Shown here: one piece after another, positions 5,896 to 50,283 of the stretch
Position numbering within the stretch: the first letter of the stretch is position 1
How the letters are laid out: every line of letters starts with the position of its first letter
From: Convolutriloba macropyga
Taxonomy: Eukaryota
Reading direction: 5' to 3'
NCBI RefSeq assembly: GCF_964194025.1
Contig: NC_134479.1
Span: 33,604,001 to 33,668,000, forward strand
Length of the DNA: 64,000 nt
Notes under the pieces: model-generated
Seen by the model: the letters and a program-made list of their open reading frames with translations, nothing else
Told to the model about the DNA's origin: nothing
Database searches by the model: none
Translations under genes and position numbers: made by a program

Positions 5896-5985
5896 AGTAG
5901 TATCCATATCTGCCATGTTACTGGAGGAGGGGGGTCCGGACCCCCCCCCCTACAAGAACTTTCACTCTGTAAAAGTTGATTTCTT
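5896..5985 (+). repeat. Polinton left terminal sequence with GC hairpin (GGGGGGTCCGGACCCCCC)
   Basis: AGTAGT start, palindrome at ~5929-5946; diverged direct copy at ~23967-24051. Confidence 0.75.
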
Positions 5986-6587: not shown

Positions 6588-6938
6588 ATGCCAGGACACA
6601 AATGTGAGACTTGTGAGCTCACTTTCAACAATTTTCAAGAAAAATTAAAACATTTCACAGAAAATCACAAAAACCGATATATAAAATATTGTTCAAGATG
6701 TCAGGAAGCCATTTATTTTCTTCCTCAGTTTACCAAGCATAAAAAGCACAACAAATATCTTGAAACCAACCCATTATACTGTTCTCGATCTCTTGTTTCG
6801 GGGAAAATATTGGACCAAATTTGCCCTTTCTGCAGGCAAATTTTTTTTTATAAACAGGAGCTCGAGAAGCATTTGAAAAGCTTTTGTCGGTGCAAAGTGC
6901 AAAGAATATCCGACAGGAGGACTGGGAAATTTCCTTAA
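6588..6938 (+). CDS. Polinton C2H2-type zinc-finger protein
   Basis: CETC-X12-H-X4-H, CSRC...HKKH and CPFC-X12-H-X4-C; ATG at 6588; convergent with pPolB. Confidence 0.7.
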   Translation: MPGHKCETCELTFNNFQEKLKHFTENHKNRYIKYCSRCQEAIYFLPQFTKHKKHNKYLETNPLYCSRSLVSGKILDQICPFCRQIFFYKQELEKHLKSFCRCKVQRISDRRTGKFP

Positions 6939-7056: not shown

Positions 7057-10000
7057 TTACTCAGTGTCAGAATCTACAATATAAGCACGGGCACGTTTAA
7101 TCGAGATTACTGGCGATTCCTCATTTTCAGAGAGTGTTACCTCTGAAGAGTTAGTAGATTCAACACTATCTATTTGTCTGAATAAGTTATTGCTTAATGT
7201 TGCTTGCTTCTTTTTGTTGCTGATGCTGGCTAATGTTTCATTCTCACTGCTTGAAGAGCAGCAATCTGGGTTTTCATCAGCTTCATTGAGAATGAACGGG
7301 TTATTGATTTCCTGGTCAGACTCATCACTTTGTTCCGATAAATTTGAAAGGTCAATAACATCATTCAACTCTTCATTAGAGTACGAGGGCTGATGAAAAC
7401 CTGGATCGGGTGTTTCCCAGCCTGAGGCCTCCCCTCCTTCAGGAAGTTCAAACACGTTATAGGGTTCGTTCAATTCGTCTTCCCAGTCGGTTTCGGCACA
7501 CAGTTTTTTTGAAACGTATTCATCACGCAAAGAAAAATGTCCGAAGGGAGTGTTGTTTTTTTGTCTGTATTTATATATCTTTTGTCGTCGTATGCGCAGA
7601 GGGCAATTTTGTTCAAGCACACAGTTTGTAGTTGATGTTTAAGTGTTGATATTTTGATGTTTTCAAGTCTCACTACGTTGCTCGTCTCCAATGTCTCTTT
7701 GAACATTTCATGATTTAATTTGGCTTGCGCGAATTTTTTAGTTCCTTTCGCCGACATTTTGTTTTCGCCATTACTAGCAACAATCGAGTAAAGTTTAGGC
7801 TTAAGGGCACAGAATTCTTCTATTGGCGTTCCTGCAAGTTCGTCTTTGAACTTAAGCACCACCTTTGCATTCGTTTTGTCATAGAGTTTGTGGTCGCTGG
7901 GGAAGTTTGAGAGATCAAAGTGTTTTTTCAGGGTAGAGTTTTTCGTCAAATCATCATAGAAACTATTCGTTTTAACTTTGTATACGAATGAGTCTGTATC
8001 TGAATACAGCAAACTGCACTCTGTTTGTTTTTTCATTACGTTGTAATGAAAATCCAACATAAACAGCTTTGAAAGCTCAAGAATGCTGGCTCCAATAATT
8101 GTTGGTTTGTTCCATACTATCGATTGGACTTTCTTTGTGATAATTGTTAGGTTCTCATCTATGATTTTTATCGATGAAATATTTCCTTTTGATGTTGTTT
8201 TAAGTAGCTCCTCTTCTGTGCGAACAAATTTAACGGACACTCTATTTCTCAAACTTTCACATAGCTTGCCAAAAGTAGAGTTTGACATAAGTTTGTAGAA
8301 ATCCTGATCGAGCTTAGAGCTAGCTTCTTGACGTTTCTGTGTGTTAAGTGCAATATAACTTGCTAACCACTTAGATTGATGAAACTTTACTGCTCGATGA
8401 ACTCGGGTGACCTTAATTCCGCTATCAACATAGAATTTGAGGTTCCGGTAGTGAACAACATAGTTCTTCTTTGGGTGAAACGTCTGTCTCAACTTACTTG
8501 ATTTCGACGAAGTTAGACTTAGAGCGCTTCTAAGAGTTGTCTGATAGTCACTAAGTTCTAGGGTATCGATTGGTTCTTTGTCGGGTATCAATGGGTAGTC
8601 TGCATGTTCATCATGTAGAGCATCAGGGTACTCTAGATCCACCTCAACAATGAAACCAACATCCCCTTCGTCGTCGGTCTGCAAAATTGTTTCTAGTGCA
8701 ACATCTTCAATCAATTCAAACTGATTCAGGGGAAGAGGGAAATGTAACATGATTCCCCCGTAAAGGTTATTAGCATCAATATAAATGATTGATGAGACTT
8801 CCTTTGAGCTATCAAAGTTAGGCAGTAGGGTGTTGTTTGCAATCTCTAGTCTTGAACTGTAGACAGAGGACAGGCCTCCACGTATCATTTTCTCTGCCAT
8901 TTCAAGGATCAGTCGGTCTGTCAACAGCTCAATTTCGGGCTTGCAGGTTTTCAGAAACGCGTTTCCAGAAAGATTTGAAGCTGTGTAGAACTGTGCACAG
9001 TCCAGGCCGTATGTGTCATAGCACACAGAACGCAGCTCCTCGAACCAGCATGACAACTGTAGCACATCGCCAGTGAGATATAGCTCCAGGAATTCCTTCA
9101 GACTTTGGCAATTGAACTCGTTGAAGACAAAATTCAACTGATTGAGTTCCTCACTGGTAACATCAATTTTATTGTCTTTCAAACTGTTTTTCCAGTTTTC
9201 GAGACTGGGAAGAGAAAGTTCTCTTAGTTTACTGAAGTCATTGAAATACGAGTAGGGAAAACTTCCCTTTTTCTTCAACAAGTTGCGTTGCTCAGTGGTA
9301 TAGCCTCGGTAAAAGTTGTCAAGAATACTGAATTTATTGTGAGGCAGAGTTTGTACAATTTTATCGAGGCTGCACGGCATAAACTTGAAACTGTCAATAA
9401 AGCGCATGTACTCGTAAACAGTGACTTCATCTCGCTTCCTTTTTCGTGTTTCAATGAATACACCAAAATTTAGTGCAATGAATTTTTCGTCGTTTGTCGG
9501 TATCACTTCAATTTTTGTTGACTCTGAGGCTGTATGCAAGGACTTAACTATGTGATGTAAGTCATAGTTCATCATGTTGTGGGCAATTACGGGAGTGAAA
9601 TTGAGTGTTCGGCGCTTGAGGTTGCATTCGTCGTGCGCGTAACCGATGAATTGACCACTGTAGTGACAGTGGTCCAACACTTTTTCGTTGTCATTGTTGA
9701 AAGCAACATCACAAATCCAACATCTCGAGAATGTACTTCGCAAAGGGGCGGCTCCAATAAATTTAGGAAATTTCCTTTTCTGATGGTAAAATCACCTTGC
9801 AAGTTTTTCGATTTTTGTAATGAAGCGTTTCATACAATCGGGGCCTGTGTAAATGTCAAAATGTATTGGTTCAGGGTTGTTATGTTCGACCACAATTAAG
9901 CAGTAACTACACGGTAAATGGTGTTCCAAGGCACACGTGCTTGAAGTCATTGGGTTACTTTTCGCTGTTGCTACAGGCACAAGTAGAGATTCTAAGTCCA

Positions 10001-11526
10001 AGTATACTACAAAAGGTGAAAACCACCTCGCGGCGTAGTTTTCGAACTTCAACTTGTTGTTAGCAGGATCGGGCATCGTGATTTGCAGAGAATCATTTTC
10101 CAAACACGATTTCTGATGTGCTAATAGCACATCCGCTGACGAACAAATGTGATAACAGTTCCTGCACAGCTCATTTCTATCACGATACTCTTTACCGTTG
10201 ATTTTAGCGACAAGTTTCATCAAATTGATAATGAGTACGTAGTGGTATGTCTGTTCGTTTTGTAGGAGCAACAAATCGAGTACGAATGGGAAATTTTTGC
10301 CTCGTGACAGCCTCAATGGTAGTAATTGCTTCGTCTGATACCTTAAATATGAAAAATCTCAGACTTTTTCTGGATAGTGAGGTTTTTTAAACAGCAAAAT
10401 GTTAAGAACTGTTATGATGAACGAAAAATTTTTGTTCCCCTTTTTTTAACAACTTTTCCTTTTTTTGCTTTTTTTTACAAAAAAATCACATTTAAATACA
10501 TAGTGATACAATTTGTTCTTACCTGAACACATTAACTTGTACTTCATTGAGTTCCTCAAACTTTGATATGTCCTGTAGACTCATTGGCATTTCAAAGTCC
10601 CCTTTCGGTTGCTTTGCTGATGGATTTTGTTTGCTGTACGTCAGAACGTTGGTGCGTGATCTGAAGCATGGTGTTGGCGGTTCTAATTTTTCTTTTTTGT
10701 AAACCAGATGGTATCCAGCTGTGTAGCAGTAAAGGAAACAGTTATCATCGTTTGCATTGTGTATGTTTAACAAGTTCGAATCTCTTCTTAGCGGATATTC
10801 CTCATGAAACGGTATGAAACTGCTTCCCCGGACAGGCACATATTTGGCCAGCTTCAGGGTAACTTTGTCTATTGAAAGTAGCTGCCAACCACTTCCGTAG
10901 CTTGAAAACGAAACAAGTTTTGAAACAATGTTGTCGACAAAGTCTTCAAAAATTTCATCCGAAATCCCTGAATGATATACGATTCGTGTATTTGTATTGA
11001 AAAACACGCTTAATTTTTCTTGATCGTCATCCAAAGGTTTCTGAAGCGTCATTTCCACTACAAGTTGAACCTTTTGTGGAAACCTGTGCGTGTGTTTTTG
11101 GACTTTTTTCGAAATTTCGCCCCGGTTCCTGAACAGATATTCCATAATGTCTAAATCTCCCTGGGCCGGCTCAAATTCGTAGTAGTTTACACCATTGCTA
11201 ATTGAACTGACTGTTGGTCTAGACGTATCAACTTCGTGGGTTTCCAAGTCCAAAATGGGCAGACCATGCTCATTGTTTATGTGCTCAGCATATTCGAGTT
11301 TTGTTTGAAAACCTACGCGACAAGTATAGCAGACTTTTAAAATGGGCTGTTGATGAGAAATATGAGAATGCTTACGCAGTGTAGGAAGACTTCTAACGTT
11401 CTCGAAACACTGAAAACAGCTGAAAGTCGGTATATCTGGAAAAATTTTATGTATATTCTTCATATGCTTGTTAAGGGACCTTCTGTTGGAGAGCTGAGCA
11501 GAACAGTTTGGACACTGAACTGGCAT
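7057..11526 (-). pseudogene. polB: Protein-primed family B DNA polymerase (pPolB) with N-terminal C2H2 fingers, EndoVII-like insert and acidic tail. Two exons (11526-10523, 10341-7057); in-frame TGA at 9792-9794; 1-nt frameshift near 7545
   Basis: Exo motifs YLDLES, HNMMNYD, YLTGDV; pol motifs RGGLS, YIDANNLYG, KLMSNSTFGK, YSDTDS, LKPKLYS; CWIC...DHCH..G...G.AH..CNL; ORFs 9792-10316 and 7470-9743 share a frame; the TLPFGH end is restored by shifting into ORF 7057-7620. Confidence 0.92.
10342..10522 (-). other. Spliceosomal GT-AG intron (181 bp, phase 2) in pPolB
   Basis: AG|GTAAGA donor, CTTAAC/CTCAC branch-like motifs, TTTAAG|G acceptor; splicing gives continuous VNVFR-YQTKQLLPLRLS...DLLLL...HYVLI. 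Confidence 0.85.
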
Positions 11527-12229: not shown

Positions 12230-12775
12230 AGAAAGTTTTCATTCAAATTGAGTGCAAACCTAACACCAAGTTCCCACTTCACAGATAACGAAAATTCTTT
12301 CCCTTCAATGTTTGCTTGGTGATAACACTAGTCTTTTCATTAACCAGTAAACTTGATCGAAATTCGAATTTTACCCATTGGTTGTTGTAGAGCAGGGAGT
12401 GTCATATCAAAAGAAAACGGTTCATAAAATTGAACTCTAACCTAACCCCTGAACGTTTCAGATAACAAAAACTGTTTTATTTCCCTAATTTTGGACTGTG
12501 TAATAAGCACAATTTTTTCGTTAAACTGTAAAGTTTACTAAATTTAGAAACGTACTGAACGGTTACTGTAGAGCAGGGAGTGTCATATCAAAGGAAAACG
12601 TTTCATGAAACTGAACTCCACCTAAATCCTGAACGCTTCAGATAACAAAAACTTAAGTTTTCTAACTTTTGGGCTGTGTACTAAACACAATCTTTTCATT
12701 AAACAGTAAAGTTGATTATATTTAGAAACGTACTGAAGGGTTACTGTAGATCAGGGGAGGATCAAATCAAAGGAA
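12230..12775. repeat. Three tandem ~177-180 bp units in the Polinton non-coding region
   Basis: CAGATAAC anchors at 12282, 12459, 12639; GTAGA(G/T)CAGGG at ~12387, ~12568, ~12746. Confidence 0.85.
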
Positions 12776-13549: not shown

Positions 13550-14305
13550 TTATATTGAGTTGTCAAAGAGTTCTCGCATAGCTGAAATTTTTCTTTTTTT
13601 TGGAGCATTGTCAACTGAGGGGTTTTCAGTGTTTTCGGGAGTTAAAGAAAAGTTTTTGGTAGGTGTATCTTCTTGTTCTTCAATTCCATTGTAAGTTGTG
13701 GGAGTCTCAAAGTTGTCTCCAGAAAGGTTTTTCAACAGATCGTTTGTGTCTGTAGGACTGTCAAAGTTTATCCATAAGTTGTTGCTTTTCAGATTCGAAA
13801 AAAGTGAAGGACTCTGCTCTGAGCTATCTGGGCTGAGTGTTGGACTGGGGTCCGCAGTAGGCGTGCAAAATGGTGACGGATTTGTAGGAGACTCAGGAGA
13901 TTTTGGAAGCCCCCAAAGATCCGCTAGGTTGTCGCATGCTTGCAAAACACCGAGCTGGTTCTCATAGAATGGTACACAGTCGCAATCGTATTTGTATATT
14001 AATTTTTTGGTTCCAATTGGTAAGTTCGATATATCATATTGTTCCAGAGGGTGCAAAAGTGTTGTTGGTGGTACAATTCCCCCTGATGTAATGAATCCAC
14101 TACCAGTAGTTTCGGGTTTGTCGGGTAACTGAGCCATAAAATTGATGAATATTTTTGGAAGCATGCAATGGTCGTGAGTTATCCACTCTTCTTTTTCATG
14201 AGAACGTTTTTGTTGTACAATTACTATGAAGTTTTCATGTACAGTTTGATAGATAATTGTGCGTTCACATGACAAATCGCTTTCTGACAAAATATGGTAA
14301 GACAT
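13550..14305 (-). CDS. Polinton accessory protein with Ser/Pro-rich disordered C-half and NLS
   Basis: 251-aa ATG ORF inside the element; PKKRK near the C-terminus; no family recognised. Confidence 0.6.
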   Translation of the reverse strand: MSYHILSESDLSCERTIIYQTVHENFIVIVQQKRSHEKEEWITHDHCMLPKIFINFMAQLPDKPETTGSGFITSGGIVPPTTLLHPLEQYDISNLPIGTKKLIYKYDCDCVPFYENQLGVLQACDNLADLWGLPKSPESPTNPSPFCTPTADPSPTLSPDSSEQSPSLFSNLKSNNLWINFDSPTDTNDLLKNLSGDNFETPTTYNGIEEQEDTPTKNFSLTPENTENPSVDNAPKKRKISAMRELFDNSI

Positions 14306-14951
14306 TGCAATTGCTCTGGAAAATTCAGATGAACTGTTAAGTTATAATTGAAGTTAAACAACAATAACGAAAATTTTGAAAGATAATGTTTCCTTGAAGC
14401 AAATACTAGTAATGTTGAAACGAAAAATTGAATCAAAAATGAATTGAGGTACAGTTATTTTAAACAGACACTTGTTTGCAGTATTACAAGCATGAACTTG
14501 AATATAGAATTGAATGAAAATTTCAACAAGTATGTAGGTTGTTCAATGTCGTTAAAGCGTCAAGTTTTGGCACACGTGTTGGGTTCACTTTATTGATCAA
14601 GTTAGTCTCTTGACACACCTAAGGTCATACATGTACTCTTCATTTTGGTTTTATCTGTTAAACCAAACATTAAAGTTGTATTGTTTCCAGACAAGACCAC
14701 CCTGAAGTTAAGGCAGGCTCTAGTACCATGGGAATTTGTATGCATACATAGGATAAAGACATTTATGCGTTTGCCTACAGGACTAACGTACAAATACTGT
14801 TAACTCAATAGATCATATTTCTTATCAGTTAACCAATTCTATTTTTAGCGTCTGCGTGTAATATCTATAAAATTTTGGTGCACGAAATCATTGACACGGT
14901 TTTTCTTAAAGCAAAACAGTTAGTTGAATATATTGAATAAGAAACACAAAA

Positions 14952-15284
14952 ATGCCTTTTACAGCGGAGACAGACGCTGAGTTTGGAGACGCTCATTTTG
15001 ACGTTTCCAAAAGTGAAAAACGTTTGATCAGAGCAACAGTGAAAACTTATGACAAAACAGGAACTTATATCTTCCTAAAGTTGTTCAAAAAAGTTGGTCA
15101 AGAGTTTGAACTTCAACAGAGAATAACACTGACTTTAGAAGAGTTTGAAAAGTTATCGAAAAAGAACGGAAAAATTCGTTCTGCTGCTAACGACAACACT
15201 GAAAACGATTCTACTCTGAAAGCTCCCTCTGCAAAGAAACCTAAATTAAAACAAAAAGACGACGAACACGAATTCTCTGAATAA
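14952..15284 (+). CDS. PC4/Sub1-like ssDNA-binding protein (putative)
   Basis: R.TVKTY...TYIFLKLFKK.....QRITLTLEEFEKL resembles the PC4 pattern (VTV..F.G..YVDIRE......KGISL..EQW..L); basic NLS-like tail. Confidence 0.55.
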   Translation: MPFTAETDAEFGDAHFDVSKSEKRLIRATVKTYDKTGTYIFLKLFKKVGQEFELQQRITLTLEEFEKLSKKNGKIRSAANDNTENDSTLKAPSAKKPKLKQKDDEHEFSE

Positions 15285-15304
15285 TTTAAAGAGCTCAATT
15301 GAAA

Positions 15305-15973
15305 ATGGTAGAAGCTATGTATGAACGTTCGCCTGGTTACTTCAAGCAATTTCAAAAAAATTTCAGGTTTTTTATCACTGAAGAGAAACCAAAATCAACG
15401 TTTGCTAAAGTTTCAGCCATATGCATGCACACTGATAGCCTTTTTTGTGGAGTTTTACCTGCTAATCATTATCATGTTTTGTTCGATGTGTCAGATGTTG
15501 CTACAGATTTCTTTAAAAAAAACAAACTTTATTCTGTTCCATGCTTATATACAACTTTCAATTGTTTATTCTCGAATGGCAAGGACTTGGAGACAATTGG
15601 TACGGTTTTCGAAAAATTGAAGCTAGCTGTGGAATACAATGGTCTAACGTTACAGACGAAGGGAGACACTACAAACATTCAAAAACGTTTACCCAATTTG
15701 GTCAATGGCGTTGGCTGCAAAACTCATTGGGCAGTTGGAAGTACTGCTTTCAAAACTCTAGAAAATAGTGTTGAGAAAAAATCAAACCAACAATTGCAAA
15801 CTGACCGATTGTCTACTGAAACTCTTAAGAGATTTGAGAAAATTTTGCATGGTCCTCATTCTGGTGCTTTCTGTCAAATAATGGATATCTTTTTGAGTGG
15901 TTATGGAAAATTGGATATTGACAATGATGTTTTGTGTGTTCGCTTAGTTTATGAAGAAAAAATAAAGTTTTGA
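15305..15973 (+). CDS. Polinton accessory protein with HUH-like motif (HYHVLF)
   Basis: ~222-aa ORF from ATG 15305; FFIT ... HYHVLF ... Tyr; function inferred only. Confidence 0.55.
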   Translation: MVEAMYERSPGYFKQFQKNFRFFITEEKPKSTFAKVSAICMHTDSLFCGVLPANHYHVLFDVSDVATDFFKKNKLYSVPCLYTTFNCLFSNGKDLETIGTVFEKLKLAVEYNGLTLQTKGDTTNIQKRLPNLVNGVGCKTHWAVGSTAFKTLENSVEKKSNQQLQTDRLSTETLKRFEKILHGPHSGAFCQIMDIFLSGYGKLDIDNDVLCVRLVYEEKIKF

Positions 15974-16007: not shown

Positions 16008-16442
16008 TTAGAGCATCATATGAAGCGCAAAACGTATCAAATCAACATCACTCATCTTTACAAATTCTTTTTCATCAAAAAGGTAGTGAGCAATATAAAT
16101 GCAAAATAAGCCACACAATATTGAGTTTGGTTTTTGAATTGGTTGGTTTCTAAGCAATTCAAACACAGTTTGAATATTACCAGCTGAGGAAGCAAGTCTA
16201 TTGTGTAAATGTTTATATATAGTTAGATTTTGTCCCAGTGGATCTGCAAAAATATATTTTCCATTTTTCCGACAAATAAGTGTCCAATGTGTTCCAATTG
16301 TTTGAGAAGTTGATACATTCACTATAATGAAGCTGTTCTGAGATAGGCTAAGCGGAAAATTATCAGCAGCAAATACACCATGAAATTTGTACTTCAAACG
16401 TTTACATCGTTGAACGAGGTTGTTTATTTCATCTTCATCCAT
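16008..16442 (-). CDS. Adenain-like cysteine (maturation) protease
   Basis: GTHW, FADPLG and Q...SILCGLFC catalytic H/D/Q/C motifs. Confidence 0.9.
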   Translation of the reverse strand: MDEDEINNLVQRCKRLKYKFHGVFAADNFPLSLSQNSFIIVNVSTSQTIGTHWTLICRKNGKYIFADPLGQNLTIYKHLHNRLASSAGNIQTVFELLRNQPIQKPNSILCGLFCIYIAHYLFDEKEFVKMSDVDLIRFALHMML

Positions 16443-17767
16443 CAGTTTGTGAGAATATGATTTTTTGAAACTCTCCGAGCAGAGTCAATGAAAATTGTGC
16501 TAGCTTTTTCACCAATTATAAAAATTTCAATGTTGCCTGGTAAGGCCGCTGAAAACTTAAGTTCAATTGAAATTGAACAATTGGTGAGTTCGGGGTGAAT
16601 AAAATCATGTGACGCCTGCTGAGTGCTGGTGAGATCAAACACCATAATAAAATGGTCAGGGTATTCAGACAAAGTTATTCCATGTCCATTGTCAATATAG
16701 GCTAAATCTGACATTGTGTTGAAGTACATGCGTTTTACGTCAGCTGTGTTTATGGGACTGTCTGCAACGGGGAGTCCATTTCGATAAATACATATCTGCT
16801 CCAGATTAAATTTACGAAAGTGAAAAGGATTGAGTTGTTTGCTTCCTAAGAAAGCTTCATTTGTGTTAAGACAAATGGCAAGACGTCGAATAGGCTCCCT
16901 GCTAAAAACATCTTCTTGTTTCCAACTTTGCGAACCAGTAGAAGCCAGAAATGTTTTTGTTATGGTTTCCAAGTAAGGATAGGACGCTGGGCTTGTTAGT
17001 AAAGTTTTTTCAATGGCAGAAACGACGTCGTCGTTCAATGTCATTTTTCTCACATACAAATTAGCTTCTTTAATTTTTACTTTGTATGATTTTCCAGCAT
17101 CGTCAGATATTACAACAAAATCATCTATTGATCTTCGAAAGGAAATTTGCAATGTGACTCCACTCAAAAGATGTCGATCACATGTAAAAAAATCTACTGC
17201 CACTTTTCCATAAAAGGTACATTCAGCAGATTGTCTAACCAAAGTTTTTCGTCTGTTAACTTCAGCTGTTGCTATCGCTCCAGGATTATCCTCGTACGAA
17301 TAACCTTGGCAAGCCAACCAAGTAGCCTTTGCGTCTTTGTTGTGAGAAAATTCCGTTTCAATGAAACTTTTGTGAGCATAATTTCCATTTGCATTTGAAA
17401 TTTTCAGTCCGTTGGCAGATACTGTACAGTCTGAAAAGAGTGAATGTAAAACATTATTACAAAAGTAAGGAGCGTCTGTTTTGGTTATATCTGCTGCAGC
17501 TCCAGCATCATATTTTAAGTCAGCTTCAGAAGCCTGAACTATCTTGCATTTGATTTCCAGGAAGATTTTTTGCAGATCAATAAAATTATTTCTGTCTCCA
17601 GCAACCTCAAACTCAAGCATGGGTCCGTTAGGACTGTAAACTGGCCCTACTTTTTGACAAAAGCTCCCATCAAAAGTTACAAGAAGCGCTGGTTTTTCGA
17701 ATAAATCCAAGGAACTATGTGTTGCCTCTGTTGGTAACATATTACCGATCATCTTTAACTTTGGCAA
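16442..17767 (-). CDS. Double jelly-roll major capsid protein (Polinton PY/hexon-like); likely ATG at 17740
   Basis: SSLDLF..P, LEFEV.G...FIDL, NNVLHSLFS, NYAHKSFIET, NPFHF, FDLT motifs typical of Polinton MCP; ~435 aa; located between the protease and penton genes. Confidence 0.88.
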   Translation of the reverse strand: MPKLKMIGNMLPTEATHSSLDLFEKPALLVTFDGSFCQKVGPVYSPNGPMLEFEVAGDRNNFIDLQKIFLEIKCKIVQASEADLKYDAGAAADITKTDAPYFCNNVLHSLFSDCTVSANGLKISNANGNYAHKSFIETEFSHNKDAKATWLACQGYSYEDNPGAIATAEVNRRKTLVRQSAECTFYGKVAVDFFTCDRHLLSGVTLQISFRRSIDDFVVISDDAGKSYKVKIKEANLYVRKMTLNDDVVSAIEKTLLTSPASYPYLETITKTFLASTGSQSWKQEDVFSREPIRRLAICLNTNEAFLGSKQLNPFHFRKFNLEQICIYRNGLPVADSPINTADVKRMYFNTMSDLAYIDNGHGITLSEYPDHFIMVFDLTSTQQASHDFIHPELTNCSISIELKFSAALPGNIEIFIIGEKASTIFIDSARRVSKNHILTN

Positions 17768-18185
17768 AGAAATCCGACCGACTTCTCTTTGGCTGTTTGT
17801 GTTTTGAAATGACTACCTTTCTTTTTTGGATTCGTTGCCTTGTTTTTGAACCTGAGCGTCTAGATCGTCTACGAGTTATTCGTCTTTGTCTCATTCGCAG
17901 TGCCAATGAGCCTCCTGTTTGCTTTTTGACTGTATTTGATATCGTGTTTTTCAGCGCTTGCTTTGGAGATTTTTTTTTACTGACAACGTCCATTAACTCT
18001 GGTACGCTCTGTAACAGAAGTTCTTTTCCAACTCGTTTTGCTGCTGGTAAAACAAATTTTCTTGCAATAGGTAGAGCGATTCTTCCGATACCACTTGCTA
18101 AAGCTCCAAAGCCGCTACCTCTTTGCCTATAGTGCCCAGAAAAATAAGGCAATGCAGATGCTTGATTGGTGTAGTATGAATCCAT
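17742..18185 (-). CDS. Basic core/membrane-active virion protein (adenovirus pVII/pVI-like by analogy)
   Basis: YY.NQ...LP.F.G...QRG.G.G motif conserved in Polintons; amphipathic segment; QTGG; Arg-rich tail. Confidence 0.7.
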   Translation of the reverse strand: MDSYYTNQASALPYFSGHYRQRGSGFGALASGIGRIALPIARKFVLPAAKRVGKELLLQSVPELMDVVSKKKSPKQALKNTISNTVKKQTGGSLALRMRQRRITRRRSRRSGSKTRQRIQKRKVVISKHKQPKRSRSDFFAKVKDDR

Positions 18186-18190
18186 TGCTT

Positions 18191-19075
18191 TTACTCACCA
18201 AATTTTTTAAACTGTAACGTCAAAATGACTTTTCCGGTCCCTGAAAAAGGGACTAATTGACCTGTTTCGGTGCGTAGTTCTATAGAAATCGACTGAATCG
18301 TATTTGAAAGAAGTTTTTTGTAGTCCAAATTCGAAAAAACTATTCTGTGTGTTGGTTCAAGCTCGCAGACACTACCGTTTTTCAATCGTTGTTTTGAATC
18401 AATGACTCGTAGTAAAGGTGCTTTCGCATCGCCCACGTATTGATATTCAATAATGTTTGTATAAATGAATATCAAATGTTTCCCGGCGCACAGATCAGCT
18501 GGAAAGTCACCCATAAAAGCTTTAGTATCATCTTTTTTCATCAGTTTATTTGCAGTTGTGTCCATTTTGTAGCCAATGTGTGTTCCTCGTCCATCAGGGA
18601 CACCCCTGAAACCAATAATGCTAGGAATTTCATCGCTTGGAAACGTAATTCCCTCGTATTTTCCAAAGACAATTTCAAATTTACCGGAACTTTTAATTTC
18701 TCTGAAAGAAAAATTGGGTAAACCAACAGTTCTTTTAATGGTAGCTAACAACTGTGGCACAGTATCAAAAGTTCCTGGCATGAAAGCTAATCGCTCACCG
18801 TTGTATGGACGTGATATGACATTGGCTCCAGAGCTATTCCGTTGGTGATCTTCTAAACCACTTAAACTATAAGAAATTAGGACTCCGTTTGTGATGTGTT
18901 CTATTTTTGTTGGAAAAATAATTTCACTCAAAGCTACTCTCCAGTCTCCCGACAGTTGTATTTCATCATTGAAAAAATTCCTGAATGAAGCCAATGTGTT
19001 TTGATCGAAGATCTCCATCGAAGCGGAGGAGATTACATGTACCGTAAATTCATCTTCAAAACGTTTACTTGCCAT
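18191..19075 (-). CDS. Minor capsid protein (Polinton PX/penton-like)
   Basis: S.ASM..F..NT..SFRN......L.G.W.VALSEI; IYTNIIE.QYVGD..APLLRVI; ISIELRT..G..VPF..GKV..TL.F. Confidence 0.85.
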   Translation of the reverse strand: MASKRFEDEFTVHVISSASMEIFDQNTLASFRNFFNDEIQLSGDWRVALSEIIFPTKIEHITNGVLISYSLSGLEDHQRNSSGANVISRPYNGERLAFMPGTFDTVPQLLATIKRTVGLPNFSFREIKSSGKFEIVFGKYEGITFPSDEIPSIIGFRGVPDGRGTHIGYKMDTTANKLMKKDDTKAFMGDFPADLCAGKHLIFIYTNIIEYQYVGDAKAPLLRVIDSKQRLKNGSVCELEPTHRIVFSNLDYKKLLSNTIQSISIELRTETGQLVPFSGTGKVILTLQFKKFGE

Positions 19076-20177
19076 TTTGCACAGGCGACTCTCGAACTAA
19101 TTGGAGTTCGGGTTGATAGAACTTACCCTGAATAAATTCCTTATCGGCATCGATAAGAGAATACGTTGGAGGGTTCAATGTTGGGATCGACGAAATTTCA
19201 AGAATCTCGTCTGTAGAAGACTGTTTGTAACCCTTTCCAAACGTCTCCTCTTTTTTCAGTATTCGTACAAGATCACCAACAAAAAATTTTGGTTTTTGAG
19301 AATATGTTGTATTCACAATCAACGATACCAGTCGCGGAACGTCTTTTTTCGTGACTTTGTTTGGAGCAAGATTGATTGTTCGATTAACTCTAGAATTGAT
19401 AGTTTTAACAAATGAATCCAGTTTATCTAGATATGAATAGGTCCACTTTTCTTCTAAGTATCTGTATATTATATTTTTGAGGGAACGTATATTTCTTTCA
19501 GCAAAAGCAGACTTTTTCTCACTGAACGTACTGTATAAATGAATTCCGCGTTTATTGCAGAGGGCTTTGAAAGCACCGAGGAACTCTGTGCCATCATCGA
19601 CCCAAACTTTTTTAGGTTGCTTATGTTTGATCATCTTTTTGAAAGCCTCTGCAGTTTCTGTAGCGTATTTTGTTTTTAGTGGTTCAACTCTGAGATATCT
19701 TGACAGACAGTCAACTGCAACAAGAAGGTATTTTACACCACTGTTGTACTTTGCAAGTTTATCAACAAATGCTAGATCTACGGACCAGATCTCATTTAGG
19801 TCGTTAACAATTACTTTAAGCCTTGGAAATCTGAGGCGACGTGAACGATATTTGGTGAAGGATGGTTTCGTTTCCAGATACATTTTTACTTTTTTCATTG
19901 ATAATTTACTCAAATTTTGAAGTCTTTTTGCGTTTCCAAATGACGCAGGTCCTTTTAAATAGAGGTTATCAAGTTTCTTCACATCATCTATAGAAAGCCC
20001 AGTGTTTTCTACTCGTGTCTTCGATTGTCTTCTTTTTGCTCTCATCGACTTTTGGCTTTGCACTTTTTTCTTTTGTCTCAGATCTTCCTCTTGGTTTTTG
20101 TTGCTGTTTCTTTTGTTTTCGAGTCGGTTGCTCTTCCTCTTCTTCGCTGTAGAACTCATCGAGAACTTTTTTTGCAT
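19065..20177 (-). CDS. Retroviral-like (RVE) DDE integrase of the Polinton; true start probably downstream (~20045)
   Basis: WSVDLAFV, VAVDCLSRY, VDDGTEF, KSAFAERNIRSLK, F.KGY, G.FY..EL; no C-terminal chromodomain. Confidence 0.92.
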   Translation of the reverse strand: MQKKFSMSSTAKKRKSNRLENKRNSNKNQEEDLRQKKKVQSQKSMRAKRRQSKTRVENTGLSIDDVKKLDNLYLKGPASFGNAKRLQNLSKLSMKKVKMYLETKPSFTKYRSRRLRFPRLKVIVNDLNEIWSVDLAFVDKLAKYNSGVKYLLVAVDCLSRYLRVEPLKTKYATETAEAFKKMIKHKQPKKVWVDDGTEFLGAFKALCNKRGIHLYSTFSEKKSAFAERNIRSLKNIIYRYLEEKWTYSYLDKLDSFVKTINSRVNRTINLAPNKVTKKDVPRLVSLIVNTTYSQKPKFFVGDLVRILKKEETFGKGYKQSSTDEILEISSIPTLNPPTYSLIDADKEFIQGKFYQPELQLVRESPVQNGK

Positions 20178-20751: not shown

Positions 20752-21050
20752 TATTTGACTTTTAAGTAAAGGTAGCATGAGAATAATATTGCCTTGATAA
20801 GTTCTGATTTTCTCACCAAAATAAATCGCTTTTTCTTCAGACTTGTTTTCTTTAATAATAGCTGCTGAAATGAGTCCTCTTGATTTTTTAGTAGCTGTTT
20901 GTTGACTGGAACATTGCCATTGATTACATTGAGCAAACACTCACACAGAATATTTATAAAAGTCTTTGGTGCTTTTTTGAGGAACTTTCTGAAATTACTA
21001 TCAGACAGCTCGAGCATTTGCTTTAGCATACATAGCTCTTTCTCTCTCAT
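20751..21050 (-). CDS. Small conserved Polinton protein (LCEC..N...GNVP motif)
   Basis: FLKKA...FINILCECLLNVINGNVPV ... SLKKKR pattern, recognised from Polinton small ORFs. Confidence 0.65.
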   Translation of the reverse strand: MREKELCMLKQMLELSDSNFRKFLKKAPKTFINILCECLLNVINGNVPVNKQLLKNQEDSFQQLLLKKTSLKKKRFILVRKSELIKAILFSCYLYLKVK

Positions 21051-21693
21051 CTGTTAAATTAGTTATGACCGCTTTGGAGGAAGGTAGATAAAAAATTGTT
21101 GGACCTGGTTTTACAATATTTGAACAATAACGCAAGGAGTCTGAAGTTTTTGGATCCAAGTCGATGAGTAAGTGTCCAAAGGGTAATTTTGTTGCTAACT
21201 CGTAGCGTTCTTTTAAAAAACTTGTGTTGTTTAACTGTTTGCCAATATAGGTGATCTGCTGTATATCTCTAGGTGATTTGAACAAAATGATGTGGGTTGT
21301 GTTGAGATCAATTGTTCTTGACCATTTACTCTGTTGGAATAAGTTATGTTTAACGTAAATGACGCTAATATTTCTATGACGTCCAGCAGTTGCGAGTTTA
21401 GAAAACTCTTTGTCATTGAAAATTTCCTCGCAAGAATCGTCAAAAACAAGCAGACAGTTTTCCAGCTGTGAAATGAAATCAAATCAAGAAAACTTTGTGA
21501 AAAAAATGTTCAAGTTACGCTCTATAGAGCTGAACTTAGGTTGCTCATGTTGATAGAAGTAGTAAATAGATTTAAATTTTGGGTAAAAGGTGTTTCTCAG
21601 TAACATTTGGAATATGAGCTCAGTTTTACCACAGCATGATGGCCCACAAACAGCCATGAATAGTCTATCGCTTGTTGAAATTATCTTGTTCAT
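21001..21693 (-). pseudogene. A32/FtsK-like genome-packaging ATPase with one in-frame TGA (21484-21486)
   Basis: Walker A GPSCCGKT; reading through the stop gives LLVFDD (Walker B), GRHRNISV, HNLFQQ, FKSPRD, PFGHLLIDL in the same frame. Confidence 0.88.
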
Positions 21694-21992
21694 AGCTTCG
21701 GATTAGGAAGCGCATAGCCAACTGTGCATGAAAGCAATGAAAACCAAAATGTTGACTCTTCACAATCAAGATGGAAAAACACAAGTTTAATCAAGGACAC
21801 ACCAATAAGAAAGAGTATTATTACGATTTGAGTAAAATACACTACTTCTGATCGTGGTAGTCTATAGTTACAAAATTTCCATGAGCGTCTCTCTTGATTT
21901 TCTTCATTGAAAACTAAATCATTCAAACCTATTCCAGCAGGGCAATCTATCTGATCTTCTTTATCACTCATTTTAAAAGACGTTTTGATCAA
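21690..21992 (-). CDS. Small two-TM membrane protein of Polinton-like viruses
   Basis: W.FC...RSEVVYFTQ + hydrophobic helix + W.SLLS..VGY.LPNP. Confidence 0.65.
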   Translation of the reverse strand: MIKTSFKMSDKEDQIDCPAGIGLNDLVFNEENQERRSWKFCNYRLPRSEVVYFTQIVIILFLIGVSLIKLVFFHLDCEESTFWFSLLSCTVGYALPNPKL

Positions 21993-46700: not shown

Positions 46701-49112
46701 CTGTCTCGATGGATAGATAGATTGCTACCGTACAATTTCACGATTGAGCATATGCCAGGTGCAAAAATGGGACTCGTTGACTACATTTCCAGAAACCCTT
46801 TTGCAAGAGCTAAAAAGATATCTACATACGACGAGCACTTTGTTGTAGCAACAATTTCTAAAATCCGTGATTTAATGAAACATTTAATTACCAATAGACA
46901 AACTACAACTACAAAATTTAGAAACATATTAAAGTTGAATTTGCCTTCACCAAAAGTTACACAACCATTTGCATCGCGATTAACCATATCAAAAAGCAAT
47001 AATTCAACTAATTGTGATATAGCATCTGCATCGCAATTAACCAGTTCACCATTGAAACCTCCATTCGCACCGCAATTAACACATGCTAATTCAAAATTTA
47101 ATCCGTATTCTGTACATCCATTTGCGCCGCAAATGCCACCTAAATCTACAAAATTACAATTTGTACCAAATCACTGTAAAATAAATAATTCACATTCCAT
47201 TAACAAATTCACTGCAAAAGAGGTGCAAATCGTAGACAGCAAAGAATGTGAACAATCTGAACAATTATCCTTAATACAGCCTATTAATGGTAATAAGTCA
47301 ATTAATACACCTAACAACACTAAATTAAGCGCGAAAACACAAATCCCCAAGTATAAATACCACTCACCCAAAAACAACTCGCTTTTTGCCCAAATTCTGC
47401 CTAAGAAACACTACTTTGTGAATAAACTCAATAAACCTTTCATTTCAAATAATTCCGTAAATAGCCTCAGCACGATGTCAAAAGCTAAAGCAACCCGCTC
47501 GGAATCGACCCCTACTAAAGCAAGAGTAACGTTCTCCGACACAACACCTTCAACACCCGAATCAAATGCAACAACTCATACTGAAACCCCAACTGGTAGT
47601 ATGATAGACGAAGCTGAGGACATAATGTTCACCGAGACCCTAAATAAGGTGTTCAGTAGGAAATTTCTAGCAATACTGACTGGAAAAGACGCGATATTGA
47701 AAGAAGTAAGGGACTGTGTACTTCGAAATGATGCAGAACGACTACAAGAAATCAGTCCCTATCTCTTTTCATATTGGAGAGATCTTAGTGTGAAGCACGG
47801 GTGTGTCTGCCTAGACGAAAGGATTGCGATCCCAAAGTCCATTAAAGATGCGGTGTTGGAGGACATACACTCCACACACCCAGGCAGTTTCGCTATGCTT
47901 TCCTTGGCTCAAAATATCTGGTGGCCTTACATACACAGAGACATTCTGGCAAAGGCCAGTGAGTGCAAAGCTTGCACAGATATTGGTAAGAATCTAAAAT
48001 CAGTGATTTCGCACCGCAAATGGACACCTCTACCTAAATGTAGTGAACCAAATGACGAAATACAATTAGATTTCGGTGGCCCAATTTTAAATGAGAAAGG
48101 AACAGAACAATATTTCCTTACTAGTATAGATAGATACTCTAAATATCCCACAGCAGAAATAGTAAATAACGCATCAGGCTCAAATGTAATCAAATTCTTA
48201 AATAATTATATATATCATCATGGAGTGCCTAGAACTATTAGATTAGATCAAGCTAGATGTTTTACAGGAAAAAAGTTTGAAACATTTTGTACCGAAAACA
48301 ATATTACACCTATTTATGCACCTGCAAATGACCATAGAGCAATTGGATTAGTAGAACGTACCATTCAAACAATTAAACGACAATTAGCTTGCATGAAATC
48401 ACAATTAAATAAAAAATTTAATTTAGAAAATTCACTCAAAGCTATAATACAACGACTTCGTATATCAAAACAAAAAACAATCACAACCACACCCTTTGAG
48501 GCACATTTCGGTAGAAAATGTAACACACCTATATCAAATATTACAACTAAATCTGATAGTAAAAATCTCAACTATAATGCAATAATTAATTATTATTTAG
48601 ACGAGGATACCATCCGGGGCCGTTCCTACCTTACAAATGAACAGTGGGCGGATACAGCTCTTTGTTCCGATACGGAAATTGAGCGAGTCATTTGCGCCGC
48701 AAGTACCCGCGCAAGAACAGAACAAGACAAAAGGAAAGACGGGGAAGAGCGTTTTATAAAGCCAGATGTCATTCACCGTGCAATTCCCTGCTCTGAACGA
48801 AGCGTACAAGTGAAGTTGGCCCAAAAAATACATGAAGACCAGCGCCAAAAGAAAAACTTGGACGGTCTCTACGAAGTATTAGCACCTGGCAGTACAGTGT
48901 GCAAAATAAGCCCAACGACGAGTGTCATCAAAGAACCCTCCAAACCTGAAGTACGGGTCAGAAATTCTGACATCGCCAAATTTGGAACGCGGGCCGAACG
49001 GGAAACAACTTTAGCACAGTACATAGACAGACGCCCAAAGAAACTAAACGAAAAAACTCTCGAACAAAAAATTCAACAACATAAACGAGATCTTTTTCGA
49101 AAAAATACCTGA
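43788..49112 (+). CDS. Gypsy gag-pol polyprotein; the same frame continues past a TGA to 49658
   Basis: Two knuckles (CMDC...H...C, CHNCGIMGHFARKC), DSGS protease, FLDD RT, CDAS RNase H, HHCC + D-D-E integrase. Confidence 0.95.
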   Translation: MAQPASDSKKTPLHIEAFWEKPTATPSLTWIKWTQQWKLALLAKEGIQLDTLLSDPPTTVTYPPEPTYEAPVENHTQATERDRKVRNQQLKVNWQNRCAKIEEIGILCGDKPWGICEQKTISLLYLSIGTEGRRIFKSKYPHFQIEKQPFKDLWRAMEDSFTKVRNITYDRFVFYSCKQQKGESVESFYGLLIELAENCNLGSEETTLIRDAFILNMLDHETQKELLKETVDPPKALEIAIQMEMGAQNQQKINQNLMSGNTSVNYINNNSMRNRNANGPSTKRDFTRYASIPKNYQYTSICMDCGLRWSHNHKQICPANGKKCHNCGIMGHFARKCRKTKQPQLSIQKTQKSNVNQIDQTPEKSDDEESVNYITSYQQLYDQVYDSNYDSDSDDYVAAISSDSVHQLEPLNVEVQIGEIQTSAMIDSGSAVSIITQSLANKVLRSTNSAKWIKSTEKRNLKTFSNEPIKVIGHLETTVAYNQWQNKSAILTVVDDGHKNIIGRDLFTTLGLAVVQQQPETGKCVYNINNPTCKIKESIATQFPHLVSRIGLSKTHVAKSKFHQTFTAKHQKGRRVPINLQPRVSRELERLQSEGHIEKLSSCSNEHFISPIVITVKKDQSIKLALDSKVLNKAIHKNKYQMPNIEMLIDTISQHLTDTQNGQQAYFTTLDLKYAYSQLKLHHDTAKHCNFNIICGESTGTYRFKTGFYGLTDMPAEFQKAMDYTLIGLQNTYCFLDDIIIVSTGTEADHLAYVHKCLKKLDDDNLRINLQKCHFAKSEIEWLGYKFTQTGISPLESKTAAILTIPPPTTLKRLRSILGSVNYIGKFIPHLAQLCHPLRPLLKKSVKFIWTDEHPKHFNQIKEKIANSTENSHYNPKLDVRIKCDASRSGLGAALEQNTPDGWKPIAFTSRFLNSTEERYSVNELELLGIVWSIDYFKYYLYGKNFTVVTDHRALLSILKEHRSNKSYNSRLSRWIDRLLPYNFTIEHMPGAKMGLVDYISRNPFARAKKISTYDEHFVVATISKIRDLMKHLITNRQTTTTKFRNILKLNLPSPKVTQPFASRLTISKSNNSTNCDIASASQLTSSPLKPPFAPQLTHANSKFNPYSVHPFAPQMPPKSTKLQFVPNHCKINNSHSINKFTAKEVQIVDSKECEQSEQLSLIQPINGNKSINTPNNTKLSAKTQIPKYKYHSPKNNSLFAQILPKKHYFVNKLNKPFISNNSVNSLSTMSKAKATRSESTPTKARVTFSDTTPSTPESNATTHTETPTGSMIDEAEDIMFTETLNKVFSRKFLAILTGKDAILKEVRDCVLRNDAERLQEISPYLFSYWRDLSVKHGCVCLDERIAIPKSIKDAVLEDIHSTHPGSFAMLSLAQNIWWPYIHRDILAKASECKACTDIGKNLKSVISHRKWTPLPKCSEPNDEIQLDFGGPILNEKGTEQYFLTSIDRYSKYPTAEIVNNASGSNVIKFLNNYIYHHGVPRTIRLDQARCFTGKKFETFCTENNITPIYAPANDHRAIGLVERTIQTIKRQLACMKSQLNKKFNLENSLKAIIQRLRISKQKTITTTPFEAHFGRKCNTPISNITTKSDSKNLNYNAIINYYLDEDTIRGRSYLTNEQWADTALCSDTEIERVICAASTRARTEQDKRKDGEERFIKPDVIHRAIPCSERSVQVKLAQKIHEDQRQKKNLDGLYEVLAPGSTVCKISPTTSVIKEPSKPEVRVRNSDIAKFGTRAERETTLAQYIDRRPKKLNEKTLEQKIQQHKRDLFRKNT

Positions 49113-49790
49113 GAGAAAAAGATAAAGCGAAACAGAAAAAACACAGACGATGTAAGTGTCATTTCGTCGGCACGATCTTGTATATCTACAACTAGCAATG
49201 TCGCAAGATCATTGAAAATGAGAGTACCAAAAAGAAACCCGAAATACGATGAGGCATTCAAAAATCGACCCGACCTTACACAAATATTAAATTTCAGTCC
49301 AATCGCGCCGCAAGTGGTATCATCTGATATAGCAGGGCCATCTGGAACACAAACAACCTCCTCGACTCAAAAACAACCTACACCCATCTTGCGAAAGACT
49401 TCGAAACGCAAAATCACGGTCAGCGATACATCCGATTCGGATACGTCTTCTATTAGAAAAAGCAAAAGGACACTGAAGAAAAAATCCCAAAAATCGCAAA
49501 CAATTGTCGAAAAAGTTCGTAACACAGAAGGTTACACTGATTACCAAGACACTGGCATTGCGGGAGGATCAAATCAAGGAGATGAGTACTCGCAAAACCA
49601 ACCAAGGGAGATGACAGTTCTCCAGGCCGAAAATGCTGAAAATAGCGACAGCGAGTGATCTTCGATAAAGAAACTTTCATAAACTTCTATTCTATCTATT
49701 ATTTAATATTTTATTACTTACTAACCGGTGAATATTTATTAATTTTCTGATTTTAATCTAGTAAATTAATTTTTCCCCAAGAGGGGGAAA

Positions 49791-50283
49791 TGTCATACGG
49801 CAATGGATACCCTTCATGTATCCATATCCGTATTTTAAACTAATTTATTGTTGTATGTTCCTTTTGAAGGGCGAATGCCATTTTTAGTTCAGTGCTATAT
49901 ACTCCCTCCCATTTTTAGTAGTTAAGTCTGTTCACCCCGTCTGTACCGGATATATACTCATTCACGTTGTAAACAAATCAAACTTTGCTTCCTTTCTGTA
50001 TGATTAAAACCTGAACAAACTTTCTTTCATAATCTGTATTATCATTAATTTTCATTCCCCAATTTGTAGCGCTAACGTTCAGTTCAATTTAATCCTTGCA
50101 AAATACCTCTCGTTTTAACTGAGTAGTTCAGTTAGAGTCAATCGCACCGCGATTGCCAAATTTAGAAAGGCTTTAGTTGAAAGTAACAACTAAATCATCC
50201 ATTCGCGACGCGAGTGCCTATCTCAGTACTTGCAAGGCCATTTGCGATTCAATTGACTATACTCCTTGTGTAAGATTATAACA
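49791..50283 (+). repeat. Gypsy 3' LTR
   Basis: Near-identical to 43296-43788. Confidence 0.95.

Follow-up and report, generated by a model that had tools for sequence, protein, structure and literature searches.

HUH genes have been reported in mriyaviruses, in some PLV groups and in one virophage group, as far as the accessible text of the sources goes (10.64898/2026.06.19.733378, 10.64898/2026.10.13.758929, PMC11253617). For the plasmid initiator RepB, His39, His55 and His57 are given as Mn ligands in the accessible sections (PMC5030251), and Reps which have lost catalysis have precedents in the parts available of two further papers (PMC6668415, PMC10193959). The terms Maverick, Polinton and PC4 co-occur in the accessible text of PMC11662393, where PC4 is a cluster label. 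No single-strand binding protein (SSB) or end-recognition factor was found in the accessible parts of the Polinton literature searched. To our knowledge, neither the exit of a Polinton from the chromosome nor the start of its replication has ever been shown at the bench.

A Polinton with an opposite-strand gene pair

The window, i.e., the whole stretch of 64,000 nucleotides of Convolutriloba macropyga DNA that was analysed, contains an element of approximately 18 kb which starts with AGTAGT at 5896. The left terminus was placed there because homology to sister copies begins at about this base. The right terminus is described from sister copies. The following features were assigned.

5896..5965, plus strand: Polinton left terminus with AGTAGT start, TIR of about 70 bp, G-tract and GC palindrome at 5929-5946
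7470..11526, minus strand: region which we take to be protein-primed DNA polymerase B (pPolB) from polymerase motifs, in three reading-frame pieces in the window copy; no Pfam polymerase match
13550..14305, minus strand: orf13550, divergent from ORF1 and usually its neighbour
14952..15284, plus strand: ORF1, 110 aa, predicted PC4/Sub1-fold domain at aa ~11-79 with four strands and one helix, then a tail that is basic and modelled at low confidence
15305..15973, plus strand: ORF2, 222 aa, predicted HUH-Rep-fold domain, variable linker and conserved C-terminal segment
15353..15643, plus strand: predicted HUH-Rep domain of ORF2, aa 17-113, modelled with a per-block pLDDT of about 60-77
15428..15475, plus strand: H42, C48 and H55-Y-H57 of ORF2, predicted metal site, its histidines aligning with RepB His39/55/57
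15542..15571, plus strand: C80 and the helix equivalent to motif III, without a conserved Tyr
15797..15970, plus strand: conserved C-terminal segment of ORF2 (QT..R..D..SGYG), pLDDT mostly below 55
16008..16442, minus strand: adenain-type protease (Pfam Peptidase_C5, E 3.2e-6)
16442..19075, minus strand: putative major capsid, core and minor capsid genes, presumed from gene order; no Pfam match
19065..20177, minus strand: rve integrase (Pfam rve, E 1.1e-8)
21001..21702, minus strand: putative packaging ATPase, in two frames in the window copy, with a Walker A-like motif; no Pfam match
23967..24051, plus strand: subterminal second TIR copy, corresponding to the inner arm of the fold-back of about 270 bp at the ends of sister copies

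Of the characters by which Polintons are recognized, the rve integrase and the adenain protease are encoded in the element itself according to Pfam, AGTAGT ends were found in sister copies, and matching 6-bp flanks were present in three of the six elements viewed. ORF1 and ORF2 are adjacent, 20 nt apart and opposed to the flanking minus-strand genes, just as the first-pass annotation had described. One other plus-strand ORF exists near the left end, a C2H2-like zinc-finger ORF (6588-6938, weak Pfam match); zinc fingers were also matched weakly at the N-terminus of the polymerase region (10519-10800). Tandem repeats lie between polB and orf13550 (12299-12756, period of about 180 bp) and beside the right end (23570-23841, period of 151 bp). 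To the right of the element, BEL/Pao-type and Gypsy-like LTR retrotransposons occupy 24456-31935 and 43296-50090, with terminal repeats 99% identical. A CTTATCAG motif is located at 14820-14830, approximately 130 nt upstream of ORF1, and is kept in the window copy and at three further loci (L093, L099, L105); it is a possible promoter element in the divergent intergenic region.

The host's own genome was searched with ORF2, and at least 151 matches were obtained (150 of 3213 candidates were scored), besides many more distant ones. From the match lists, 24 loci were picked, favouring open frames, with contexts drawn from this one genome. The protease gene lies downstream of ORF2 on the opposite strand in 24/24 loci, and ORF1 directly precedes ORF2 in 4/4, 10/10 and 7/10 loci of three sets. 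In subfamilies down to 32% identity, the cassette is flanked by polB/orf13550 on one side and by the protease gene on the other, in elements which also carry the putative pPolB, the integrase and AGTAGT ends, several of them with 6-bp target duplications. Measured against the window copy, dN/dS was 0.14-0.25 in ten ORF2 pairs and 0.05-0.16 in seven of eight ORF1 pairs, the eighth being saturated; both genes are under purifying selection. Divergence is faster in ORF2 than in the capsid gene (32-37% vs. 58-68% in the third set). The cassette of predicted PC4 and HUH-Rep genes is thus an established component of the Polinton clade and no recent insert.

Predicted folds and conserved residues

The first-pass annotation had called ORF1 PC4-like, and structure prediction agrees. 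A search returned 81 matches, from which a 48-sequence alignment was built, and the AlphaFold2 model contains one helix and four strands, pLDDT being 83-93 between aa 11 and 70. The first seven Foldseek rows were MoSub1 and the PC4 homolog of phage T5; MoSub1 reached E 1.3e-3 at a probability of 1.0, and no row was at or below 0.001. In VIA, MoSub1 scored Z 8.2 (rmsd 3.8, 74 aligned residues) and human PC4 Z 7.0, the top nine rows all being of PC4/Pur type. Pfam PC4 matched 3 of the 48 family members weakly (best E 0.011), none of them passing the cut-off. On the basis of the model, the assignment of a PC4/Sub1 fold is good, and ORF1 is a predicted binder of single-stranded DNA.

For ORF2, homologs were collected by word search (161) and by profile search (372, with 150 among the matches listed). 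Near-full-length sequences were chosen for two alignments, one of 50 close homologs and a wide one of 49 mixed sequences down to 23% identity. The structural model is weak overall (mean pLDDT 51.9) and better over aa 17-113, where pLDDT is about 60-77. Its top Foldseek rows were pMV158 RepB and viral Reps in PDB (E 0.055) and parvovirus NS1 and Reps among the viral structures of BFVD (E 0.012). In the wide VIA comparison, the first 14 rows were all Rep nuclease or origin-binding domains with Z 6.1-4.6, followed by the first unrelated row at 4.4, and in a second look the first 30 rows were all Rep or origin-binding domains. The best match, a nanovirus Rep (Z 6.1, rmsd 3.0, 79 aligned residues), falls short of what VIA itself regards as distinctive; SV40 T and E1 are also represented among the top rows, by their origin-binding domains. 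When the ORF2 domain was compared with seven Reps of the pMV158 family, the profile score was 26.1 against 11.1±2.3 for column shuffles, with 0/100 shuffles reaching it; comparison of the whole-length profile matched just 12 columns around HxH at a probability of 11%. Since the ranking is uniform and the motif is present, we assign a predicted HUH-Rep fold to ORF2, although no single score is strong. The predicted structure thus has the fold which the first-pass annotation had proposed from motifs alone.

Pfam gave no match for ORF2 or its homologs. Matches to DnaB, Mcr-1 and S20 in a PDB sequence search were dismissed as chance, and RAG1-like clusters, leads from the ESM Atlas with scores <0.9, were rejected for lack of fold support. 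As for a fusion to an SF3 helicase, the 222-aa ORF2 has no P-loop, homologs among the matches listed are at most 347 aa long, and a search for a longer helicase-fused form found none, which is weak evidence. Relatives were found neither in IMG/VR (322 pattern matches) nor in JGI metagenome contigs (602 pattern matches) nor in plasmids.

The motif positions given in the first-pass annotation were reproduced: FFIT at aa 22-25, HYHVLF at aa 55-60 and Tyr at 76 and 82, without YxxK in the motif-III region and without a helicase motif. The strand at aa 20-25 aligns with RYFTF of RepB, but in this motif I region, FFIT included, hydrophobicity alone is conserved. The HxH motif is more than chance, because the pattern H-U-H-U-U-U arose in only 0.175% of 20,000 random 222-aa strings of the element's composition and because H55 and H57 are kept in 46/50 and 49/50 close homologs, so that the conservation anticipated for HxH was indeed found. 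In the wide alignment, H42 (48/49), C48 (46/49), H55 (46/49) and H57 (45/49) are nearly as constant as the invariant C80 (49/49). The profile alignment pairs H42, H55 and H57 with the RepB residues His39, His55 and His57, respectively.

The tyrosines, whose conservation had likewise been expected, behave differently. Y76 and Y82 are each replaced by Phe in 34/50 close homologs, even though Tyr is the commonest residue at position 82 in the wide set (30/49). Residue 87, which stands opposite the Tyr of YLTH in RepB in a low-probability alignment (31%) that is not a superposition, is Tyr in 4/49. All Tyr-rich columns of ORF2 swap with Phe, and Y76, Y111, Y200 and Y216 were rejected as catalytic residues since all of them swap with Phe or others. 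Among homologs with all five His/Cys residues intact, 18/37 close and 11/43 wide-set sequences have no Tyr at all in aa 80-92, and such sequences include clusters of 65, 66 and 91 members. In 18 subfamily representatives from the host's genome, the motif-III helix carries Tyr at 82 in five, at 87 in two, at 90 in one and nowhere in ten. Since Tyr is not conserved, ORF2 falls outside the Tyr-dependent HUH nickases, even though the predicted fold and metal site are kept. It would most likely be a de-catalysed Rep derivative. On the other hand, the strict retention of HUH suggests some chemistry, as known de-catalysed Reps lose HUH whereas ORF2 keeps it strictly.

Terminal structures and possible roles of the cassette

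The first-pass annotation had proposed the hairpin GGGGGGTCCGGACCCCCC as the substrate of the pair. This GC palindrome, of which a variant lies near 23990, is restricted to the window's clade. It is absent from the termini of more distant subfamilies with the same cassette and was, therefore, rejected as a universal substrate. The direct repeat at 5906/23967 was likewise discarded as the mark of a direct-repeat element, as the sister copies show an inner arm of a terminal fold-back. Their ends consist of an arm of about 120 bp, a loop of 24-28 nt, the complementary arm and an unpaired terminus of 10 nt (-144 kcal/mol, z -31). Subfamilies at 70% identity share the hairpin, both arms having changed together. 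Sequence-unrelated fold-backs of 220-280 bp end the elements at L145/L165, L150 and L158, in separate parts of the ORF2 tree, for which a long-branch warning applies. Altogether, fold-backs of 220-290 bp with an unpaired AGTAGT end were observed in three Polinton clades with unrelated sequences (loci L022, L024, L025, L027-L030, L063-L067, L094-L096, L106, L145/L165, L150/L163, L158/L164). Ordinary TIRs at both ends were found at L099-L104 and L109-L112, only a partial fold at L154/L160 and short hairpins at L147 and L162, with ORF2 kept in all of them. As many cassette-bearing subfamilies lack long fold-backs, the cassette needs no long hairpin. A G-tract about 27-32 nt inside AGTAGT recurs across the termini viewed, one set of which had been filtered for it.

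Loop orientation was determined by pairing 92 exact loop matches with 82 exact inner-marker matches, resulting in 41 pairable ends in the assembly. In the window's family, 38 of these are flip and 3 flop (approximately 7%), an assembly-based count which may contain artefacts; a fourth inverted end was seen with one mismatch. The terminal hairpin of AAV occurs in a flip:flop ratio of about 1:1. A ratio near 1:1, as expected of a rolling-hairpin replicon, was not found here (38:3), though integrated copies may be biased.

Several derivatives were observed besides. Elements of 13-18 kb at L027/L028 (C5:30496763-30515167) and L029/L030 (C1:50338116-50351462) have the window family's hairpin at both ends, contain kilobase inverted and tandem repeats and encode an orf13550 homolog (33-34%) alone; they are likely a non-autonomous family borrowing these ends, and numerous pairs of loop matches 13-19 kb apart suggest more such copies. 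In polB-less Polinton derivatives at L095/L096, L145/L146 and L147/L148, one arm has given way to a second, inverted copy of the opposite arm; the TIR at L095/L096 is 2.4 kb long. A single inner-hairpin-inner junction, tail-to-tail-like, was seen at L067:1400-1882.

We favour, with about even confidence, the reading that ORF2 is a non-nicking, metal-binding, Rep-derived binder of ends or single-stranded DNA which, together with ORF1 as SSB, is accessory to protein-primed replication. It joins the observed conservation, position, selection, residue pattern and terminal structures to the two predicted folds. ORF2 would descend from a helicase-less HUH Rep whose nucleophile was lost, with H42/H55/H57 and C80 and/or C48 holding a metal, probably Zn, for fold stability or a grip on DNA phosphates. 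It may recognize the element ends, or the displaced strand folded there, in the manner of polyoma- and papillomavirus origin-binding domains; the G-tract would be a candidate site. Dimers of ORF1 could coat, or melt, the strand which pPolB displaces. Long fold-backs and rare loop inversions might stem from template switching or end recombination instead of obligatory nick-and-transfer. Tyr-less homologs, purifying selection, the 3/41 inversions and the long hairpin at L150/L158, where ORF2 lacks the helix Tyr, support this reading. The weak ORF2 model, modest E and Z values, the 31% alignment at the Tyr, Tyr at position 82 in 30/49 and the strictly kept HUH count against it, as does the fact that the HUH relaxase MobM nicks through a histidine, according to the accessible text of PMC5863519. 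Of the nickase/origin-binding and SSB module originally proposed, the origin-binding and SSB half is the better one. The "nickase" part is unsupported, as neither the catalytic position nor any other site of ORF2 has a conserved Tyr.

Alternatively, ORF2 could have single-strand nuclease activity and nick or trim ends that have folded back. The nucleophile would be Tyr82 in some lineages, or else a His/Cys residue or water, and ORF1 would open the hairpin. We regard this as unlikely but keep it, because the RepB-like His triad is strictly retained (in >90% of homologs) and MobM provides a precedent for a His nucleophile. The unrelated fold-backs at three places on the ORF2 tree, the existence of both loop orientations along with the L067 junction, and Y82 in four of six hairpin-bearing representatives (three of them one clade) also fit. 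However, there is no conserved Tyr, flop ends are rare, elements with plain TIRs (L099-L104, L109-L112) retain ORF2, unpaired AGTAGT ends of 6-13 nt suit protein priming and the integrase with no nick needed, and the weak search for a helicase-fused form found none. Its stricter version, an active HUH nuclease without the canonical Tyr resolving folded-back Polinton ends with a PC4-type SSB, appears less probable still. If true, the clade would combine protein priming of replication with a hairpin resolution like that of parvoviruses, from which the flipped loops and two-hairpin derivatives would result.

It is similarly doubtful that the two proteins form a transcription pair, in which a PC4-like coactivator and a sequence-specific Rep-fold binder would activate the convergent capsid/integrase operon. 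Here, the best structural matches of ORF1 are eukaryotic Sub1/PC4, the cassette runs opposite to the structural genes, and the SV40 T and E1 origin-binding domains rank high for ORF2; PC4 is also a transcription cofactor, which counts against the replication reading. On the other hand, the PC4 homolog of phage T5, replication-linked by its entry title, is a top row as well, and the conserved His/Cys site corresponds to the ssDNA-handling face of Reps. That ORF2 is a captured Rep serving as decoy against co-infecting CRESS-DNA viruses, as proposed for poxvirus apvRep in the accessible text of PMC10193959, is very improbable: the host genome does contain CRESS Rep genes in tandem arrays (on C5 and C9), but these were rejected as donor since ORF2 has no profile similarity to them (probability 0.5%), and a core role is more in keeping with the fixed place beside a PC4 gene which deep subfamilies share. 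The arrays themselves (C5:7950797-7962448 and C9:39882913-39896672; L114-L123) have units of about 1.9 kb with motifs I-III, and 15/17 matches exceed the Pfam cut-off.

Relation to known systems

The pair of PC4 and Tyr-less Rep is apparently undescribed: no report of it was found in the accessible literature, including PMC11071296, PMC11296320, PMC8502044 and 10.1101/2023.08.22.554363, and none of flipped terminal fold-backs in animal Polintons, with the limit that supplementary tables of PMC8502044, PMC11071296 and 10.64898/2026.10.13.758929 could hold families under other names. Two small, conserved and expressible candidates together with defined terminal substrates make the question of Polinton replication testable in vitro.

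ORF1 shares four strands and a helix with the PC4/Sub1 family (MoSub1, human PC4, the phage T5 homolog, BPSL1147; Z 5.9-8.2), but has 16-21% identity, lies below the Pfam PC4 cut-off and is Polinton-encoded. Mriyaviruses, Zora/VC218 PLV and Gulliviroviridae resemble the present elements in that they are small, have dsDNA, encode capsids and carry HUH genes; in some of the groups, an rve integrase is present as well. In the accessible text, however, their HUH proteins are described as predicted active rolling-circle initiators, the SSB, where named, has a T7-like OB fold instead of PC4, and the carriers are not animal Polintons with pPolB plus integrase.

Nuclease domains of CRESS and parvovirus Rep/NS1 are the top VIA and BFVD rows of ORF2, and some host elements likewise have terminal fold-backs with two loop orientations. 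In contrast to these viruses, ORF2 has neither SF3 helicase nor YxxK, inversion is at about 7% rather than 1:1, and integrase and protein priming are served by AGTAGT at the ends. Through the recurrent terminal fold-backs, Polintons may be linked to ssDNA viruses with hairpin ends. With pE194/pMV158 RepB, ORF2 shares the predicted fold, as seen in the top Foldseek PDB rows, the three aligned histidines, and a layout in which a small C-terminal region, and no helicase, comes after a nuclease-type domain (accessible parts of PMC5030251, PMC6668415). Unlike RepB, it lacks an equivalent of YLxH/Tyr99, has conserved C48 and C80, and belongs to a linear dsDNA element that integrates and has a pPolB.

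Finally, the origin-binding domains of polyomavirus T-antigen and papillomavirus E1, HHV-6 U94 and avipoxvirus apvRep are, in the sources as accessible, Rep folds of dsDNA viruses with catalysis lost. These proteins lose HUH and mostly keep the helicase, whereas in ORF2, which lacks a helicase, HxH is retained along with three further potential ligands. Its metal site is kept and extended while the Tyr is lost, which is the reverse of other domesticated Reps.
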